A DNA stretch of 63,014 nt from a candidate division WS1 bacterium (lineage in GTDB: Bacteria; Armatimonadota; Zipacnadia; Zipacnadales; UBA5352), in NCBI GenBank assembly GCA_012522765.1, contig JAAYJW010000193.1, forward strand, positions 1 through 63,014, written 5' to 3'. Below, piece by piece: positions 3,214-48,231 of this stretch. The position numbers were made by a program, and so were the translations under genes. Under the pieces are notes generated by a model, which worked only from the letters and a program-made list of their open reading frames with translations, had not been told where the DNA came from and did no database searches. Within the stretch, counting starts at the first letter, position 1. Every line of letters begins with the position of its first letter.

Positions 3214-4089
3214 ATGAATGGCAATTTCATCCGCCAGCCTGGGCAGCAGCACCTCTGGCAGACAATGGCCAAGCCCGTCAATTTCTATCAGTCGGGCATT
3301 TGGAAGCAAGTCTGCGATGTGTTTGCCATGGGGCGGTGGGTTAAGAGGGTCCTCAGAACCCTGAATCACCAGGGTCGGAATGCTCACTCCTCTTAACTCC
3401 TCCCCCCGTGAAAACGAAACCGGAGTTGCCAGTGCGTGATTCCCGGGCTGTGTCCAGCTTCCAGCATGATCTATACAGCGTCGCTCACGAAGTCGGAAGT
3501 CTGACTCGTCAAACTCAATCCTGTTCCCTGCAAGCAGACGCCATTCTCTAACACGGCGATCGAGCTCTTCTTCTATGCTTTCAGAGGGAGTTGCGCGCTC
3601 AGAAAGCGCTTCAAGCACATTCTTATTTGGAACAGGCAAACCGTCCGGCGAACTCTCTCCTGAAAAAGCCCGGGCAATATTGCCAACGAAGTCCACATCA
3701 AGCGCCGCTCCACACATAACCGTCAAGCTATGGAGTCGATCCGGATGATCCAGTGCAAGCACTTGCCCTAATGTCGCGCCCATCGACAAACCTACAATAT
3801 GTGCTTTGTTCACTTCCCATGCGTCGAGAACCGATACTGCATCTGACGCCAGATCCTCCACGGCATAGGGAGATTCATCAAAGTCAATGAAGGTAGAACG
3901 CCCCGTATCACGATGATCATACCGGATGACGCGATACCCTTTGGAAACGAGCAGCTCAACAAATTCATTCGGCCACATCAGTGCTGATGCATTGGCGCCA
4001 GCAACCAAAAGGATCGTGTCTATTCGACCCGATCCAACTGACTCACTCCAGAGTGATCTGCCGTCCACATCTACAAGCTTCTCTGGCAC
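3169..4089 (-). CDS. Alpha/beta hydrolase, RdmC/DnrP-like methylesterase family
   Basis: GLSMG nucleophile elbow, IRYDHRDTGRST, DP..P.PHGKH and GLGH motifs; GTG start at 4089 with GGAGG RBS; visibly more AT-rich than its neighbours. Confidence 0.85.
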   Translation of the reverse strand: MPEKLVDVDGRSLWSESVGSGRIDTILLVAGANASALMWPNEFVELLVSKGYRVIRYDHRDTGRSTFIDFDESPYAVEDLASDAVSVLDAWEVNKAHIVGLSMGATLGQVLALDHPDRLHSLTVMCGAALDVDFVGNIARAFSGESSPDGLPVPNKNVLEALSERATPSESIEEELDRRVREWRLLAGNRIEFDESDFRLRERRCIDHAGSWTQPGNHALATPVSFSRGEELRGVSIPTLVIQGSEDPLNPPPHGKHIADLLPNARLIEIDGLGHCLPEVLLPRLADEIAIHAEQSHAADAHDSRA

Positions 4090-4211: not shown

Positions 4212-5504
4212 TCACTCTTCGCTGAGACCGTAGATGCTCGCCCCGCGGTCAACAAGCTTCTCCCGCAGCGCGTCTACATCAACGGATCGGACGTCGGCCT
4301 CCTCCAGAGCCATCTCGGCGGCGCATCCGGCCGCTTCGCCTATTGCCATCACGATCGGCATAACGCGCATTGAGCTATGCGCCGCATGGTCGCAGGAGAT
4401 GCAGCGGGCGGCGATCAGCAGGTTGTCGAAGCCCCGCGGCGTGATGCAGCGGTACGGCACGTCGTAGGCCTCGCCCGGTGGCAGGCGCTTGATGACCGTG
4501 CCCGTCCCCGCCGGGTTATGTATGTCCACCGAGTACGATCCGCGCGCGATGCCATCATCGAACTTGTGCGCCTCGAGGACGTCATCCACGGTCAGCAGGT
4601 AGTCGCCCATGATGCGGCGGCTCTCGCGGATGCCGATCTGCGGCGCCATCTCCTCCAGCCACGCCTCCTCGAAGCCGGGCACGTGGTCAACGAGGAAGCG
4701 CACCATCTGCCGCACCTGCCGCCGGCCGATCAGTTCCGCGTCAGTCATATCCTCGGCATTGGTGGCGTCGTGCATAACCACGCGGGTGGTGTTGAAGTGT
4801 ACCTGGCGATCGTGGGTGGTGAAGAACTTCAGCACGTTCTCGCGCGGGTTGTCGATCTCGCCGCGCTCCTTTGCGGCGTCGTAGAGTTCGTTGATCTCCT
4901 GCCGCGAGGGCATCGCCTCAATGTTCACGTTCATCATCCGGAAGCAGAGCGTCATTGGCTGGCAGTGGCCATCCTCCTCGCGCCCGATCTCCACCTCCGC
5001 GCCCGCCCACGCCGCGAGATCGCCATCGCCGGTGCCATCGATGAAGATCTCGCCATGCACCTGTCGAAGGCCGGACTTGCTGAGGGTGGCGATGCTGGTG
5101 ATCGCTTCATCGGCGGTATCTACATCGGCCAGCATGGTGTGAAGCTGCAGCCTCACGCCCGCCTCGGCGCAAAAATCCTCAGCGACGAACTTGAACATTT
5201 CCTCATCGAACGCCGAGGGCTGTCTTGGCCCGCCCCAGCCGCCGTACTCATCGAGGCGCCCGGTGATGCGCTCGAAGAGCCCACGGATGATCGGCTTGCC
5301 GCCGGCCACCCACGGCATGAACGGGTTCACCAGCCCCGCGGTGGCCATGCCGCCGAGGAAACCGTAGCGTTCGATCAGCAAGACATCGGCGCCCTCCTCA
5401 GCAGCCGCGACTGCGGCGCATAGTCCACCCGGGCCGCCTCCCACCACGACCACTTCGGCCTCGTCGGCTACATCCAGCGCGTCATAGTTGATCGCATTGC
5501 TCAT
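4212..5504 (-). CDS. FAD-dependent oxidoreductase (FAD_oxidored family)
   Basis: VVVVGGGPGG Rossmann motif, ERYGFLGG..T.G.V, IDGTGDGD, RESRRI.G.Y.LT, YDVPYRC motifs. Confidence 0.9.
   Translation of the reverse strand: MSNAINYDALDVADEAEVVVVGGGPGGLCAAVAAAEEGADVLLIERYGFLGGMATAGLVNPFMPWVAGGKPIIRGLFERITGRLDEYGGWGGPRQPSAFDEEMFKFVAEDFCAEAGVRLQLHTMLADVDTADEAITSIATLSKSGLRQVHGEIFIDGTGDGDLAAWAGAEVEIGREEDGHCQPMTLCFRMMNVNIEAMPSRQEINELYDAAKERGEIDNPRENVLKFFTTHDRQVHFNTTRVVMHDATNAEDMTDAELIGRRQVRQMVRFLVDHVPGFEEAWLEEMAPQIGIRESRRIMGDYLLTVDDVLEAHKFDDGIARGSYSVDIHNPAGTGTVIKRLPPGEAYDVPYRCITPRGFDNLLIAARCISCDHAAHSSMRVMPIVMAIGEAAGCAAEMALEEADVRSVDVDALREKLVDRGASIYGLSEE
4228..4274 (-). repeat. 47-bp direct repeat, copy 2 (inside the current 3' end of the FAD oxidoreductase)
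   Basis: Identical to 2958-3004, offset 1270 bp. Confidence 0.95.
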
Positions 5505-5854
5505 CAGTCAGACTCCTCGGGTTCATTCAGATCTACTGTAATGTGCATGCCCTGTTCGGCGGCCTCACGCGCCAGCGTGTTCCACTCCTGCATCTCGTCA
5601 AACTGCTCCCGCGAGCAGGGTAGCAGCTCAACCTGGATATCCCATCGCCACTTCGCCTGAAGCTCCGGCAGCAGCTTGCTCAGCGGCTGGCCCGCGAACC
5701 TGTCGTCGAGCAGGACGAGGTTGAGGTCGGAATGAGGTCGTTCATCACCACGCTGGCGAGAGCCGAAGAAGATCGCTTCTTGGACGCTCACGCGGCGCAT
5801 GAAGGCGCGGATCTCCTCGATCAGTTCCTCTCGCGGTACTTTGCCTCGATCCAC
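5504..5854 (-). CDS. Minimal nucleotidyltransferase MNT3 (116 aa)
   Basis: FFGSRQRGDERPHSDLNLV motif; GTG start overlaps the HEPN3 3' end by 34 bp; stop overlaps the oxidoreductase ATG. Confidence 0.8.
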   Translation of the reverse strand: MDRGKVPREELIEEIRAFMRRVSVQEAIFFGSRQRGDERPHSDLNLVLLDDRFAGQPLSKLLPELQAKWRWDIQVELLPCSREQFDEMQEWNTLAREAAEQGMHITVDLNEPEESD

Positions 5855-6219
5855 TCGAAGGCCTCCTCTGCCAGTTCCACGGCCTCCTGCGCGTCCTCGG
5901 GTTCGAACTGCTCCGAGGGCGGACCGCCTGCGGCATCCACGTAGCGCGTGGACATGTAGAACGGGTTCAACCGCTTGATGATTTGCCAGATCGGCTCGGG
6001 TATCCTCCCGAAGATGTCGTGGATCATCGCCTGGAGTGAGTGCTCGCGTGGCATGGGGCGCTTGAGGAGGATCGGGTAGCCGCACTTGAGGAGCTTCTCG
6101 ATCGCCTGCCGTGCGTGGAAGATAGCGTGGTGGGGGATGACGTGCTGCGAGAGCAGGCGGGCCGCCTCAAGGTCAATGCGGGCGTCGGCGATCCATCCCT
6201 GTTCGCGTTCGGAGAGCAT
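5821..6219 (-). CDS. HEPN domain protein HEPN3 (COG2250-like, 132 aa)
   Basis: W..DA..DL.AA, F.A.QA.EK.LK, P.REH.L and Y..TRY motifs; ATG at 6219. Confidence 0.8.
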   Translation of the reverse strand: MLSEREQGWIADARIDLEAARLLSQHVIPHHAIFHARQAIEKLLKCGYPILLKRPMPREHSLQAMIHDIFGRIPEPIWQIIKRLNPFYMSTRYVDAAGGPPSEQFEPEDAQEAVELAEEAFEWIEAKYRERN

Positions 6220-6338
6220 AATAGTCAGGTGGCCTCGTGGGATTCGTCGTCGGCCATGATACGTATACCCTCGCGGTCGGCGATGCGCTCGATGCCGATC
6301 TGCTTGCGCGCCTCCTCGAACTCCTCGGGAGTGTAGGC
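6178..6338. repeat. 161-bp direct repeat, copy 1 (MNT 3' end plus HEPN 5' end)
   Basis: Matches 7068-7228 with about 6 mismatches counted by eye; offset 890 bp. Confidence 0.9.
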
Positions 6339-6575
6339 CAGAAGCTCGATGGGAGGACGCACAAGTCGCCACTCCAGATAGAGCGGTGGCAGTCGATCCA
6401 GAAAGCGCACGCCCTTGAAGCGGGAAGAGATGAGCATGAGGTCGGCGTCGCTGTGTCGCCGTTCCTCACCGCGGGCATATGAGCCGTAGAGGATCGCCTC
6501 CTCGACATCCACACGCCGCAAGTAATCGCGGATTTCCTCTACGAGCCTTTCTCGCGTAAGAGGGCGGTCGCCCAC
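6225..6575 (-). CDS. Minimal nucleotidyltransferase MNT2 (116 aa)
   Basis: LYGSYARGEERRHSDADL motif; GTG at 6575 gives the same length as MNT1 and MNT3 (the ORF track starts at ATG 6593). Confidence 0.85.
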   Translation of the reverse strand: MGDRPLTRERLVEEIRDYLRRVDVEEAILYGSYARGEERRHSDADLMLISSRFKGVRFLDRLPPLYLEWRLVRPPIELLAYTPEEFEEARKQIGIERIADREGIRIMADDESHEAT

Positions 6576-6946
6576 TGTAATGTCTTTGAGCATTGTCTCC
6601 TCGCCTCCTCCGCATCCGCTTTACAGTATTCCTCGCCTGGCACAGCCATCAGGCTGCTGCGATAGCGAGAGATCGTGTAGTGACGATCTAAGCCCGCGAG
6701 CGCCTCCAGAATCTCCTGGGGCACTTCCGTACCGGGCGGTACGCCGTCCGCGGCAAGCATTCGAAGGCTATGTGAATGCGGAGGTTCCTCACTATGCTGG
6801 TCCGCGTAGAGAGCTTTGAGTGCCTTCTCAGCGGCCTGTTGCGCTATGAAACACGCCCAGTTGTACTTCTCCTCGCGTATGTTGGAATGGACGGCCAGCA
6901 TGTCCTCCTGGGCCTGCCGCACCCATTCCTCAGCCTCCCGTCGCAT
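6539..6946 (-). CDS. HEPN domain protein HEPN2 (COG2250-like, 135 aa)
   Basis: W..QA.ED, YNWACF.AQQAAEKALKA, PPHSHSL and Y..SRY motifs. Confidence 0.85.
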   Translation of the reverse strand: MRREAEEWVRQAQEDMLAVHSNIREEKYNWACFIAQQAAEKALKALYADQHSEEPPHSHSLRMLAADGVPPGTEVPQEILEALAGLDRHYTISRYRSSLMAVPGEEYCKADAEEARRQCSKTLQWATALLREKGS

Positions 6947-7022: not shown

Positions 7023-7109
7023 CTACATGTACCTGGCCTCAAGTACGTAAGCGGCTTCAAGCTGGGCGCGGGCGTCGGCGACCCATCCCCGTTCGCGTTC
7101 GGAGAGCAT
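7023..7109 (-). pseudogene. Truncated HEPN N-terminus (28 aa)
   Basis: MLSERERGWVADARAQLEAAYVLEARYM* is a paralog of the HEPN3 start MLSEREQGWIADARIDLEAA. Confidence 0.75.
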
Positions 7110-7228
7110 GATGGTCAGGTGGCCTCGTAGGATTCTTCGTCGGCCATGATACGTATACCCTCGCGGTCGGCGATGCGCTCGATGCCGATCTGCTTGCGCG
7201 CCTCCTCGAACTCCTCGGGAGTGTAGGC
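7068..7228. repeat. 161-bp direct repeat, copy 2
   Basis: Near-identical to 6178-6338. Confidence 0.9.
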
Positions 7229-7465
7229 AAGCGCTTCAAGGAATGGCAGCGATGGGTCCCACGCGTGATGCAGGGCGGCGAGGCGCTGGTGAGGTACCGT
7301 ACCTTCAAAGCGCCGCGAGATGACCATCAAGTCGACATCGCTGTCGCCCAGATTGGTTCCTTTGGCTCGCGAACCGTAGAGTATCGCTTGCCTGACCGCG
7401 ATCCGCGACATGAAGCGCCTGATTTCGTCGATTAGCTCTTCGCGTCGAAGGAGGCGGAGAGCCAC
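7115..7465 (-). CDS. Minimal nucleotidyltransferase MNT1 (116 aa)
   Basis: LYGSRAKGTNLGDSDVDL motif; GTG start with GGAG RBS. Confidence 0.85.
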   Translation of the reverse strand: MALRLLRREELIDEIRRFMSRIAVRQAILYGSRAKGTNLGDSDVDLMVISRRFEGTVPHQRLAALHHAWDPSLPFLEALAYTPEEFEEARKQIGIERIADREGIRIMADEESYEAT

Positions 7466-7502
7466 GATATTATCTCCTGCCGCTCTCGTTTTGGCACCGT
7501 CT

Positions 7503-7539
7503 GCCGTCCCCGATTGCCGATTGCCGCTTCCCGGCCGTT
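7503..7539 (-). repeat. GGCAATC / AACGGCCGGGAA motif cluster, the same family as the flanks of the four-helix-bundle gene
   Basis: Minus strand after the gatB stop reads aacggccgggaa-g-cggcaatcggcaatcggggacggc; both parts occur at 46681-46732. Confidence 0.7.
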
Positions 7540-17774: not shown

Positions 17775-18056
17775 TCAGTCGGTCGGTGGCGGGGGCGGTA
17801 CATCCGCGCCCTCGGCCGGGGCCTCTGCGCCCTCTGCCGGGACCTCTGCGCCCTCAGCCGGTGCCTCTACGCCCTCGGCCGGTGCATCTGCGCCCTCAGC
17901 GGGTGCGGGCTCCTCCACCGGCGGCGGCTCCGGCATCGGCTCCTCCGGCACGATGACCTCTTCCTGCTCTGCCGGACAGCCGCTAATGACCATCAACGCG
18001 GTCAACGACGCCACGAGCGCGATGATCATTACAACGATGCCCCACTTGCTCCTCAT
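17775..18056 (-). CDS. Small Pro/Ala/Glu-rich lipoprotein
   Basis: MRSKW + hydrophobic stretch + ISG-C lipobox; five PAEGxxx repeats. Confidence 0.7.
   Translation of the reverse strand: MRSKWGIVVMIIALVASLTALMVISGCPAEQEEVIVPEEPMPEPPPVEEPAPAEGADAPAEGVEAPAEGAEVPAEGAEAPAEGADVPPPPPTD
17801..17905. repeat. 21-bp in-frame tandem repeat x5
   Basis: Units c(a/c)tc(t/c)(g/a)cgccctc.gc.gg.. encode the PAEG(A/V)(E/D)(A/V) heptads. Confidence 0.9.
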
Positions 18057-18169
18057 AGGTGCAGCCTCCTTCTGCGACATTCGCCGCGTTCCCAGACGCA
18101 GCGTACCTTCATCGCCCTCGCGGGCGGTCCAGCCATGGGGTTTAACAACAACAACTCTCCTCGCGTTCC

Positions 18170-46078: not shown

Positions 46079-46576
46079 TCAGCCTGCGACCGCGTTGTAG
46101 CTGTAGAAACCGGCCACGGAAAGCGCGGTGACAATGATGCTGGCTATCACGACCCCGATGGTCAGGCAAATGACCGCTCGCCAGAAGCTCATTTCGAAGA
46201 CGGCGGCGACCAGCGCGCCGGTGTATGCGCCCGTGACCGGCAGCGGCACCGCCACAAAGAGCGTGAGGGCGTAGACCCCGTACTTGTCCACCATCGGCTT
46301 CTTCGCTCGCGCGCGGGCGATCAGCCGGCGCACGATGCCTGTGAATATGCCCCGAGCGATGAGCCAGTCGGCGATGCGGTTGAACCAGAGCAGGATCGGG
46401 ATGACGATGAGCACGTTTGCGATGATGGCGATCGGGAGGATCTCCGCGAGCGGTAGCCCCTGCGCCATTCCTACGGGGATTCCGCCGCGGACCTCAAAGA
46501 TCGGGAGCGCCGAGACGATCGCCACCTTCAGCAGCGGGGGCAGCCCCGCCAGCGCTCCCAGTATAGCCTCTTTCAC
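46079..46576 (-). CDS. COG2426 small multidrug export family membrane protein
   Basis: SALPIFEVRGGIP and LFVAVPLP.TGAYTG.L.A motifs; GTG start after GGAGG. Confidence 0.85.
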   Translation of the reverse strand: MKEAILGALAGLPPLLKVAIVSALPIFEVRGGIPVGMAQGLPLAEILPIAIIANVLIVIPILLWFNRIADWLIARGIFTGIVRRLIARARAKKPMVDKYGVYALTLFVAVPLPVTGAYTGALVAAVFEMSFWRAVICLTIGVVIASIIVTALSVAGFYSYNAVAG

Positions 46577-46659: not shown

Positions 46660-46762
46660 CGGCAATCGGGAATGGGCAATCGGCAATCGGCAATCGGGAA
46701 CGACTACGGCAACGGCCGGCAACGGCCGGGAACGGCTGGAACGGCTGGAACGGCTGGAACGG
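46660..46762 (+). repeat. Left flank of the four-helix-bundle gene: GGCAATC-type 7-mers, then (G)GAACGGC(C/T) 9-10-mers
   Basis: cggcaatcgggaatgggcaatcggcaatcggcaatcgggaac...ggaacggct ggaacggct ggaacggc. Confidence 0.9.
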
Positions 46763-46801
46763 CACGAACTCAAGTTACCTGTTCCTACGGGGGGTTCGCG
46801 G

Positions 46802-47176
46802 ATGCGCCGCGAAATCTGCGACTACAAGGATCTTGAAGTATGGCAGAAGGGCATGACCCTCGCGCGGAATGTGTACGTCGTCACGGAGAAGATGCCCTCG
46901 GCGGAGCGATACGGGCTTACGAGCCAGATGCGCAGGGCAGCGGTATCGATTCCGTCGAATGTGGCCGAGGGTTACGGACGTGGCAGCCGCGCTGACTACG
47001 CGCGTTTCGTTAAGGTGGCGCGGGGCTCTGCCGCTGAACTGGAGACACAGGTAATACTTGCTGAGAGCCTTGAGCTGCTGCATCCGGTGGATACGGCTAC
47101 GTTGTTGCAGCTCACGCTCAGCATCCGGCAGATGCTGAATGCACTCATCAGGTCACTTGAGTCCAAGCAATCATAG
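46802..47176 (+). CDS. Four helix bundle protein (TIGR02436 / 23S rRNA IVP-like)
   Basis: YKDLEVWQK, E.YGLTSQMRRAAVSIPSNVAEG.GR and F..ARGS..ELETQ motifs. Confidence 0.95.
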   Translation: MRREICDYKDLEVWQKGMTLARNVYVVTEKMPSAERYGLTSQMRRAAVSIPSNVAEGYGRGSRADYARFVKVARGSAAELETQVILAESLELLHPVDTATLLQLTLSIRQMLNALIRSLESKQS

Positions 47177-47241
47177 CCGTTTGCAGTCGTCGCCGTCGCC
47201 GTCGCCGTTCCCGATTGCCGATTGCCCATTCCCGATTGCCG
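47177..47241 (-). repeat. Right flank: reverse complement of the left flank (31-bp perfect inverted repeat at 47211-47241)
   Basis: ccgattgccgattgcccattcccgattgccg pairs perfectly with 46660-46690; preceded by gtcgcc 6-mers. Confidence 0.9.
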
Positions 47242-47289
47242 ACACGAGTCATCTTGTTTCCCGACAAATATTGAGCCCACCCAACCACC

Positions 47290-48231
47290 ATGCTTATCAA
47301 CACACGTGAAGTTCCCACCTTCGCCGTCATCGCCCTCGGCGGGTGCTGCTGGGATTACCTCGGCATCATCCCGCACTATCCCGGCGTTGATCAGAAAGTC
47401 GCGATCGCAGAACTCTCCATGCAGGGCGGCGGGCAGGCCGGCACCGGAGCGGTGGCTGTCGCACGCCTCGGCGGCAAAGTCGCCATCGTCAGCCGTATCG
47501 GCGAGGACGAGTTCGGCAGGCATATCCGCGAAACGTTCGAAGCCGAGGGGGTCGACACGCGTTGGCTGATGCAGGTCCCGGGAGCTACCTCCCAGTGGGC
47601 CTTCTGCGCGATTGACGAGACCACAGGCAAACGCACGATCTTCTACATCCACGGGACCAAGGGGAAGTTTACCCCGGAGGAACTTGATCGAGAGGCAATC
47701 CTCGACTGTCGCTGCCTGCTTGTTGACGGCCATCACAACGTCGCCGCCGCGCAGGTCGTAAGGTGGGCTCAGGAGGCTGGCGTTCCGGTGGTGCTCGACC
47801 TCGAGCGGCGGCAGGATCAGGACGATGTCCTGCTCACGAGGGCTTCCCATCCGGTCCTCCCGCACAAGTTCGCGCTCAGCTACACCGGCGAGGGCGATGT
47901 CGTCGCCGCCGGAGAGGCGCTCCTGGCCGCCGGGCCGCAGGCAGTCGTGATAACGCTCGGGCCCGAGGGCGCAGTCGGCTTTGATGCGGACGGTGTCATT
48001 CACCAGCCAGCGATTCCCATGGAGCCGATCGTTGACACCACCGGCGCGGGGGACGTCTTCCACGGCGCCTTCGCCTACGGTGTCGCGATGGGCCATGACC
48101 TCGCGGAGAACCTGCGTTTCTCCTCTGCGGTTGCAGCGATGAAGTGCCGGATGCTCGGCGGACGCGCAGGCATTCCCACCATGTCGGAGGTGCAGCGACT
48201 GCTTTCCAGCGGCCGGCCGCAGCGAATCTGA
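47290..48231 (+). CDS. PfkB family carbohydrate kinase (YihV-like)
   Basis: GGG.A...AVAVARLG, IG.D..G, T.G..G and DTTGAGD.FHGAF motifs. Confidence 0.92.
   Translation: MLINTREVPTFAVIALGGCCWDYLGIIPHYPGVDQKVAIAELSMQGGGQAGTGAVAVARLGGKVAIVSRIGEDEFGRHIRETFEAEGVDTRWLMQVPGATSQWAFCAIDETTGKRTIFYIHGTKGKFTPEELDREAILDCRCLLVDGHHNVAAAQVVRWAQEAGVPVVLDLERRQDQDDVLLTRASHPVLPHKFALSYTGEGDVVAAGEALLAAGPQAVVITLGPEGAVGFDADGVIHQPAIPMEPIVDTTGAGDVFHGAFAYGVAMGHDLAENLRFSSAVAAMKCRMLGGRAGIPTMSEVQRLLSSGRPQRI

Follow-up and report, generated by a model that had tools for sequence, protein, structure and literature searches.

A four-helix-bundle protein gene between mirror-image heptamer arrays in a candidate division WS1 bacterium: a cassette built like an rRNA intervening sequence

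Why should one small gene lie alone between the two halves of a perfect inverted repeat, just ahead of a sugar-kinase gene? The question is raised by positions 46660–47241 (582 bp) of a 63,014-nucleotide stretch of DNA from a candidate division WS1 bacterium of the Armatimonadota (GenBank assembly GCA_012522765.1, contig JAAYJW010000193.1), called the window below. An initial annotation, made from the sequence alone, had singled out this segment as a loop-out or mobile mini-module, in which inverted arrays of heptamers enclose a gene for a four-helix-bundle protein. The answer favoured here, with modest confidence, is that the segment is probably a cassette of the intervening-sequence (IVS) type, gained and lost as a unit, whose arms would pair in the transcript into an RNase III-type stem. 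The module is made up of the following parts, where ORF stands for open reading frame.

46660–46725, plus strand: left arm, G-rich, with heptamers GGCAATC/GGGAATG/GGGAACG (46660–46700), then degenerate 9-10-mers (CGGCAACGGC)
46729–46764, plus strand: 9-mer GGAACGGCT repeated in tandem about 4 times, located between left arm and ORF
46802–47176, plus strand: gene for a four-helix-bundle protein of 124 aa (‘S23p’ / 23S_rRNA_IVP family, distantly Avd-like; PF05635, TIGR02436)
47177–47242, plus strand: right arm, C-rich, complement of the left arm; its outer 31 nt (47211–47241) are CCGATTG/CCCATTC units
47188–47208, plus strand: CGTCGC hexamer run, 3.5 copies, the inner portion of the right arm

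Tandem Repeats Finder delimits the periodic segments slightly differently.

46660–46697: period 7, 5.4 copies
46711–46763: period 9, 5.7 copies
47188–47208: period 6, 3.5 copies
47211–47242: period 7, 4.6 copies

The perfect inverted repeat of GGCAATC/GGGAATG units announced by the initial annotation is confirmed by reading the sequence, the 31 nucleotides 46660–46690 (CGGCAATCGGGAATGGGCAATCGGCAATCGG) being the exact reverse complement of 47211–47241. The symmetry reaches further inwards at lower fidelity. A repeat search pairs 46660–46693 with 47208–47241 (34 nt, 97% complementarity) and 46666–46716 with 47192–47242 (51 nt, 86%). When the 300-nt upstream flank is locally aligned with the downstream flank in reverse complement, the arms extend to about 66 nt with a score of 74; shuffled window flanks score 19.4 on average and 30 at most. 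The inner tandem runs, 9-10-mers on the left and 6-mers on the right, which the initial annotation saw as partly extending the pairing, are recovered by Tandem Repeats Finder. The 9-mer run at 46729–46764 pairs partially with 47149–47181 (33 nt, 73%). The arms mirror each other in the order of their units: none of 200 permuted unit orders reaches the observed arm score. The unit pattern GGCAATCGGSAAT, with at most one mismatch, is matched eight times in the window against 0.22 expected, seven times within the module and once at 7513–7525. Terminal inverted repeats, by which transposons and MITEs (small transposable elements bounded by inverted repeats) are recognised, are present in the module, and its termini are kept across orthologous modules.

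The gene at 46802–47176 is the only one enclosed, as had been claimed. It starts with ATG, with a GGGGGG run 7-12 nt upstream, and its product is a full-length member of PF05635 (126.8 bits, cut-off 33.8, E = 4.9e-37), which also matches TIGR02436 (121.6 bits, cut-off 24, E = 1.6e-35) and NF008911 (141.5 bits, cut-off 137). Residues 8-119 match the solved structure of Xanthomonas XCC0516 (PDB 2GSC, E = 3.6e-25). The conserved core of the family, RxxxSxxxNxxE(G), is present in the protein as RRAAVSIPSNVAEG, and none of the 14 columns that are invariant in a 41-sequence family alignment is missing. The GC content at third codon positions is 0.71, versus 0.78-0.85 in the neighbour genes. A resemblance to Avd, the accessory protein of diversity-generating retroelements (DGRs), had also been noted. 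It stands as far as PHROG 3206 (‘Avd protein of DGR’, E = 2.4e-7) and no further, both Avd models staying under their cut-offs (NF033474, 18.3 bits, cut-off 80; bAvd PF22296, 17.1 bits, cut-off 40); judged by sequence comparison, the kinship is one of remote homology only. PADLOC gave no defence-system match for the cassette. The remark that neither a transposase nor a reverse transcriptase is present in the window holds for the ORFs scanned: no transposase was found among them, and no reverse transcriptase in the neighbours or in 20 further large window ORFs, 7 of which have no Pfam match.

Is the module a real and discrete object? The identical protein and module are found in four independent anaerobic-digester metagenome contigs (L001–L004). 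In a 767-column alignment of the window with these contigs, the sole length difference is the copy number of CGTCGC (2.5, 3.5 or 5.5), and L004 shows one substitution relative to the window. Both arms are present in the window, L001, L002 and L004; L003 has the left arm and the gene, and ends inside the hexamer run before the right arm. The sharing of the module by independent assemblies, with length variation confined to the hexamers, indicates that the element is real and that its inner repeats change by slippage. The CGTCGC variation among assemblies may be a real slippage polymorphism, an assembly limit, or both.

The module occupies a divergent intergenic region, between two host genes.

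46079–46576, minus strand: Sm_multidrug_ex gene (PF06695), left host gene, transcribed divergently from the module, with 83 nt between its start and the left arm
47290–48231, plus strand: PfkB-family sugar kinase gene, right host gene, followed by rubrerythrin and argH on the same strand; the right arm ends 48 nt before its start

A PfkB scan of species-representative genomes gave four relatives among the Armatimonadota (Candidatus Zipacnadia / Armatimonadia) with a PfkB identity of 71-74%, and Sm_multidrug_ex lies beside pfkB in all four (L005–L008). Two of these orthologous sites are filled: L007 and L008 carry a four-helix-bundle gene (62% and 72% identity to the window protein) together with inverted heptamer arrays, made of about 20 GGGGCAT units upstream and their complement downstream in L007, and of GGGGAAT/GGGGGAT upstream and CGATTGC/CCATTGC downstream in L008. 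The two others, L005 and L006, have neither gene nor arrays, and with 117 and about 160 nt their intergenic regions agree in length with the 131 nt (83 + 48) that remain in the window once the module is set aside. This comparison with empty sites, which had been called for, thus bears out the view of a discrete mini-module. The terminal 17 nt of the left arm are conserved at 16/17 positions in L007 and 15/17 in L008, and those of the right arm at 16/17 in L008, with changed inner units. By PfkB identity the order is window as outgroup, then (L006,(L005,(L007,L008))), on which the distribution of filled and empty sites requires at least two losses or at least two gains at the same site. The L007 and L008 cassette proteins (5490–5882 and 5493–5861) are 65% identical, versus 88-90% for the flanking PfkB and Sm_multidrug_ex, which suggests, on these identities, either a faster evolution of the cassette than of its surroundings or its replacement by a paralogue. 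The flanks of filled and empty sites are too diverged to align, and no target-site duplication is readable there. At the empty sites, single heptamer-like motifs are seen in L006 (5900–5960, GTAATC...GGGAATCGCG, with a short inverted partner CGCGATTC) and in L005 (620–640, GGGGGCAATCC); they could be scars of lost cassettes, target motifs, or chance.

Does the association hold for the family at large? A metagenome scan with the 41-member family alignment provided 80 diverse loci, 40-57% identical to the window protein, of which 67 had enough flank to be testable; 169 intervals from the same contigs served as controls. An inverted-repeat score of at least 30 from flank to flank is reached by 34 of the 67 loci (51%) versus 1 of the 169 control intervals (0.6%; Fisher p = 3e-21), and direct-repeat scores between flanks stay at background level. 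A first periodicity threshold (0.83 over 35 nt) proved too strict for heterogeneous units and was recalibrated against the controls. An array of period 7 or 8 is then found on at least one flank of 56/67 loci (84%). The occurrence of inverted heptamer arrays around other family members, another check that had been proposed, is thus established. Period-7/8 patches are present in 58-66% of flanks versus 8% of control segments, and period-7 arrays amount to 1.9 per kb beside the gene versus 0.19 per kb elsewhere. Nearly all arms are tandem arrays; in about 80% of them the dominant period is 7, and most of the others have a period of 8, with frequent 14- or 21-nt super-periods. The arms have a median length of 31 nt and lie a median of 23 nt ahead of the start codon and 20 nt behind the stop codon, and the median outer span is 482 nt.

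The repeat unit itself varies by locus (AGTGGCC, AGTCGCT, AGGCAGT, AGGTATT, AGGGTTT, TGAGGGG and others). The unit flanking the gene recurs in other arrays of the same contig in 32/95 cases versus 11/950 between contigs; being common along a contig and different between loci, it is taken as genome-specific. Permuting the order of the units lowers the arm-to-arm score in 7 of the 9 loci with at least six units, the window and Xanthomonas included. The upstream arm is the G-rich one in 35/37 loci, a polarity that fixes one of the two possible configurations of the inverted repeat, independently of gene orientation. The gene is mostly co-directional with its neighbours (52:6 upstream, 46:11 downstream), 31 of 44 pairs being ++. 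None of the 40 fetched loci that were scanned lies in rRNA. Between distant array pairs of the metagenomic loci, a search for other ORFs returned only short low-complexity ones, none of them convincing.

Two general roles for the arms were considered and rejected. As a stop-codon insulator, 14/34 arms have inward stops in three frames, versus about 9.7 expected for random repeated heptamers, and the window arms have no stop in any frame. G-quadruplex formation does not provide a common denominator, many units being devoid of G runs and the window arm having only three GGG runs.

In Xanthomonas, the XCC0516 orthologue lies between accB and accC. Its upstream array reads GGGAATC GGGAGTG GAGAATC GGGAATC, the GTG start of the gene falling inside the array, and its downstream array, CCCATTC CCCATTC TCGACTC CCTATTC, reaches the start of accC. 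These flanking arrays are the published GGGAATC arrays and ‘inverted pairs’ (PMC4692102). They were described as G-quadruplex-forming simple-sequence repeats, with 186 arrays and 70 inverted pairs per Xanthomonas genome, and without mention of a four-helix-bundle gene (Rehm et al. 2015, PMC4692102). Arrays of the GGGAATC type form G-quadruplexes in vitro, and assembled Xanthomonas transcripts start or stop within them more often than in control repeats (PMC4692102). In common with these arrays and with the GGGGA(C/T)T arrays of Nostoc (PMC4692102), which are transcribed, the window arrays have a near-identical unit, are convergent with the G-rich array first, and occupy an intergenic position abutting neighbour genes. 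Of the window units, GGGAATG fits GGGANTN, and GGCAATC departs from it at position 3. The window arrays and the published ones differ in that most of the Xanthomonas pairs are presumably gene-less and in the scarcity of GGG runs in the window arm. X. sacchari has one gene-less inverted pair of GGGAATC type (L094, 4306–4550; also L092); it follows accC directly, encloses a loop of about 160 nt and lies at a distance of 1.4 kb from the cassette that bears the gene. In an X. campestris locus (L089), the interval from accC to the next gene holds about five tandem units of some 95 nt (4240–4874) that bear no relation to the heptamer arrays; judging by the gene calls, this intergenic region is 364 nt shorter in another strain (L090).

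Gene-less copies are not restricted to Xanthomonas. In one metagenomic locus (L050) the four-helix-bundle gene lies between umuD and umuC, and the cassette's own unit is found in both of these genes. A heptamer array (2827–2881), the upstream one of the cassette, is in frame inside the Peptidase_S24 (umuD-like) ORF, and a gene-less inverted heptamer hairpin of about 87 nt (29 codons; 3720–3806) is in frame within an uninterrupted IMS-family (umuC-like) ORF. Another locus (L037, 260–405) has a gene-less inverted pair made of the gene-flanking unit. The loops of the gene-less inverted pairs were found to hold no gene remnant. Palindromic elements that insert in frame into genes are familiar from the Rickettsia palindromic elements and from MITEs. 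The gene-less hairpins and arrays of L050 resemble them in keeping the reading frame of umuC and umuD, a likeness that concerns this related locus and not the window; the repeat structure of those elements is other than heptamer arrays. To our knowledge, no transposase partner of heptamer hairpins has been described. In a further locus (L055, 187–906) the gene (419–802) is placed between two co-directional tRNA genes (187–260 and 834–906), so that stable-RNA clusters other than rRNA also harbour the cassette.

The four-helix-bundle gene is also common on cyanobacterial plasmids, which provide the cleanest case of presence and absence. In plasmid pNe_5 of Nostoc edaphicum the cassette (arrays, gene and arrays) lies between nrdA and nrdB; a Calothrix NIES-4105 plasmid, 85% identical to the Nostoc region at the nucleotide level, has only a 16-nt spacer between nrdA and nrdB. 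From this pair of filled and empty sites it follows that the insertion or deletion corresponds exactly to arrays plus gene. TTAG is found on both sides of the Nostoc module, in AT-rich low-complexity sequence, and is too weak to be taken for a target-site duplication. At the Calothrix hlyD/ABC site the AT-rich spacer is unalignable, and nrdA–nrdB is the only clean one among the sites compared. Altogether, the cassette class is widespread, with sizes of roughly 0.45-0.7 kb, and its members lie within transcription units or at their head (operons, tRNA clusters, rRNA).

To what known element does such a cassette compare best? The initial annotation had pointed to the 23S rRNA IVSs. In Coxiella burnetii, the 23S rRNA IVS measures 428 nt; its ends form a 28-bp stem whose loop contains an S23p ORF, preceded directly by two or three GACAGAT heptamers in strain-variable number; the stem is cleaved by RNase III in vitro at mapped positions (PMC4990558). 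Proteins of the PF05635 family are likewise encoded in insertions of the 16S and 23S rRNA genes of candidate-phyla-radiation bacteria, and inside cas operons (PMC3936711). The analogy stands for the architecture: the same protein family in the loop, a long terminal stem (28 bp in Coxiella, 31 bp perfect in the window), tandem heptamers beside the ORF, a comparable size (428 nt versus 582 nt, with a median of 482 nt in the metagenomic set), and presence or absence between relatives. Copy number is strain-variable for the heptamers in Coxiella, and in the window variation is seen in the adjoining hexamer run. The analogy does not extend to the location: IVSs lie inside a 23S rRNA gene (helix 25 or 45), and the window element lies outside rRNA, between divergent genes and upstream of a sugar-kinase operon. 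An Rfam scan found only tRNAs in the window, no rRNA, and no match at the cassette locus even at E up to 5. There are three further differences: RNase III excision is demonstrated for the IVS and would be expected by analogy for the window cassette; cut rRNA fragments remain functional, whereas the target in the window would be an mRNA; and the Coxiella ORF is in decay, while the window gene gives the impression of being intact and conserved. Strictly speaking, the window element is thus no IVS, although its build is that of one. An ORF-carrying IVS of Leptospira was reportedly described by Ralph and McClelland in 1993.

How might the cassette work? The favoured reading starts from the architecture and its recurrence across the family, the units shared along a contig, the mirror order of the arms with the G-rich one first, presence or absence at orthologous sites, and the slippage-type copy variation. 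The cassette would be transcribed with the host message, in the window as the leader of the pfkB–rubrerythrin–argH message. Pairing of the G-rich 5' arm with the C-rich 3' arm would then give a stem, at least 31 bp long and about 65 bp if mismatches are allowed, that closes a 0.5-kb loop bearing the ORF. As with the Coxiella IVS, this stem would be cut by RNase III, which would separate the cassette RNA from the host RNA and might gate translation of the four-helix-bundle protein. More speculatively, having the G-rich arm first may avoid the exposure of a C-rich Rho-loading site before its partner is made. That the flanks could pair in RNA, as had been suggested, agrees with the predicted minimum-free-energy fold of the window, in which the arms form a long closing stem (z = -8.9); the arms also pair in the predicted fold of L008 (z = -4.2). 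An RNase III-type stem is favoured because of the co-orientation with the host genes, the insertion in operons and stable-RNA clusters, the Coxiella precedent, and the transcript ends found in Xanthomonas arrays. The proposal that the module is ‘processed out’ lacks a precedent if it means that a continuous mRNA is restored, as RNase III cuts and nothing re-ligates. That the protein binds the repeats is pure conjecture.

Several observations weigh against this reading. The idea of an mRNA running towards pfkB stands in so far as pfkB, rubrerythrin and argH are on the same strand, but the upstream gene is divergent, which excludes host read-through from upstream at this site; any mRNA through the module must therefore begin either in the 83 nt that precede the left arm or within the module itself, and a scan for sigma-70-like promoters around the module detected none. 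The predicted fold of L007 is no better than that of shuffled sequence (z = -0.76). Among arm mismatches, changes compatible with G:U pairing on the sense strand show no excess (35 vs 45, p = 0.31), and position 7 of the Xanthomonas unit is usually mismatched between the arms. Two Nostocales plasmid copies (L095 and L096) are antisense to their host operons (nrdA–nrdB and hlyD-like–ABC transporter), the opposite of the co-orientation seen in the metagenomic set. Finally, an RNase III cut in an mRNA leader would also sever the host message, and it has to be assumed that this is of benefit or neutral. The lack of a G:U excess, the antisense copies, and the gene-less REPIN-like hairpins with the same unit on the contig keep a reading at the DNA level open.

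Such a reading, possible rather than probable in our opinion, takes as its model the REPIN–RAYT systems (Bertels & Rainey 2011, PMC3116915), in which a gene lies between inverted repeat copies, the repeat also being dispersed as gene-less hairpin-forming doublets. Here the four-helix-bundle protein would be the cognate trans-acting factor (for binding, maintenance or mobilisation) of genome-specific dispersed hairpin repeats, the gene-less pairs would be non-autonomous, and the arms would matter as DNA, through hairpin or cruciform formation, template switching or gene conversion. It is supported by the sharing of units along contigs, by the gene-less same-unit pairs of L050, L037 and X. sacchari and by the abundance of arrays and inverted pairs in Xanthomonas genomes; the strand-symmetric mismatch spectrum, the mirror-copy arms and the clean indels point the same way. 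The window adds a second same-unit patch, solitary and 39 kb away.

7500–7535, minus strand: isolated patch with the heptamer unit of the module (minus-strand reading GGCAATCGGCAATCGGGGA), lying between the end of gatB and the beginning of a nucleotidyltransferase (NTase)/HEPN cassette

The enclosed gene belongs to PF05635 and not to the Y1 transposases, and the repeats are tandem heptamers and not REP palindromes. Moreover, no nuclease or recombinase motif can be recognised in the protein, and Avd, the only relative that has been characterised, serves a reverse transcriptase as cofactor. A target-site duplication is not established, the Nostoc TTAG being weak; the loops of the gene-less pairs hold no gene remnant; and the strong co-orientation with the host fits better with a dependence on host transcription. 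A search for an inverted partner of the 7500–7535 patch on the far side of the NTase/HEPN pairs found none.

The surroundings of this patch are themselves repetitive. Two tandem NTase/HEPN pairs lie on the minus strand, with a repeated junction sequence in common (about 6160–6225 and about 7040–7115), the heptamer patch being placed between gatB and the first NTase.

5845–6222, minus strand: HEPN
6225–6593, minus strand: NTase
6539–6946, minus strand: HEPN
7115–7465, minus strand: NTase

Elsewhere in the window, a 21-nt tandem repeat of 4.8 copies (GCGCCCTCAGCCGGTGCCTCT) at 17806–17906, within a short minus-strand ORF (17775–18080), probably encodes a repeated heptapeptide.

It is improbable that the arrays are ordinary hypermutable simple-sequence repeats, or G-quadruplex regulators of the pfkB operon or of Sm_multidrug_ex, with a gene between them by happenstance. 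The hexamer copy number does differ among near-identical strains, L007 does have some 20 GGGGCAT units, and GGGAATC-type arrays do form quadruplexes in vitro (PMC4692102). However, the empty orthologous sites are also without arrays, which are about ten times denser beside four-helix-bundle genes than elsewhere. In addition, many units of AT-rich genomes have no G runs (AGTTTTC, AGGTATT), and the window arms, with three GGG runs on the left and three CCC runs on the right, lack the four consecutive G3 tracts of a three-tetrad quadruplex. Neither a G-quadruplex nor phase variation would need an inverted, order-preserving symmetry.

More improbable still is a decayed DGR that would have lost its reverse transcriptase and its template and variable repeats and kept the Avd-like gene. 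Besides the PHROG 3206 match and the weak PF22296 and NF033474 matches, the likeness comprises the four-helix bundle and the pentameric state of XCC0516 (as cited in PMC4990558). The Avd models remain far under their cut-offs, no reverse transcriptase was found in the ORFs scanned, and the repeats are short inverted tandem arrays and not a template/variable pair. In dozens of loci, whose flanks were left unscreened for reverse transcriptases, the same build is found next to ORFs that are mostly co-directional host-type genes (accB/accC, umuD/umuC, nrdA/nrdB). As for a chance low-complexity match or an assembly artefact, the break of L003 inside the hexamer run does show where assemblers struggle, but this explanation is next to negligible, as both arms are found in the window and three further assemblies (and the left arm with the gene in L003), the score is far above that of shuffles, and the architecture recurs across phyla.

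Each of the components has been published on its own: the ORF-bearing IVSs, the heptamer arrays, the family of proteins. The literature search found no paper that links PF05635 genes outside rRNA in general to flanking inverted genome-specific heptamer arrays or to a gain-and-loss unit; most subscription journals lay outside this search, and a prior description is possible. The heptamers of cyanobacteria known as STRR are said to have been described by Mazel and co-workers in 1990. It is tempting, and at present rather doubtful, to go one step further and to consider PF05635 proteins and genome-specific heptamer hairpins as one widespread selfish or symbiotic system. Gene-bearing cassettes would be its autonomous members, and arrays and inverted pairs (STRR, Xanthomonas GGGAATC, in-frame hairpins) the non-autonomous ones; rRNA IVSs would be copies that landed in rRNA, and the protein would recognise or maintain its own arrays.

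The consequences are practical as well as conceptual. The arrays break assemblies. Gene insertions in cas operons have been taken as functional association, and flanking arrays might in principle pass for CRISPR-like repeats. A cultivable test object is at hand in the Xanthomonas accB–XCC0516–accC locus, whose protein structure is already solved. If the reading is true, three puzzles would merge into one: the origin of ORF-carrying rRNA IVSs, open since the early 1990s; the excess of heptamers in genomes, exemplified by cyanobacterial STRR, Xanthomonas GGGAATC and Beggiatoa TAACTGA; and the function of the four-helix-bundle family, a very large family named by annotation pipelines and so far unexplained.

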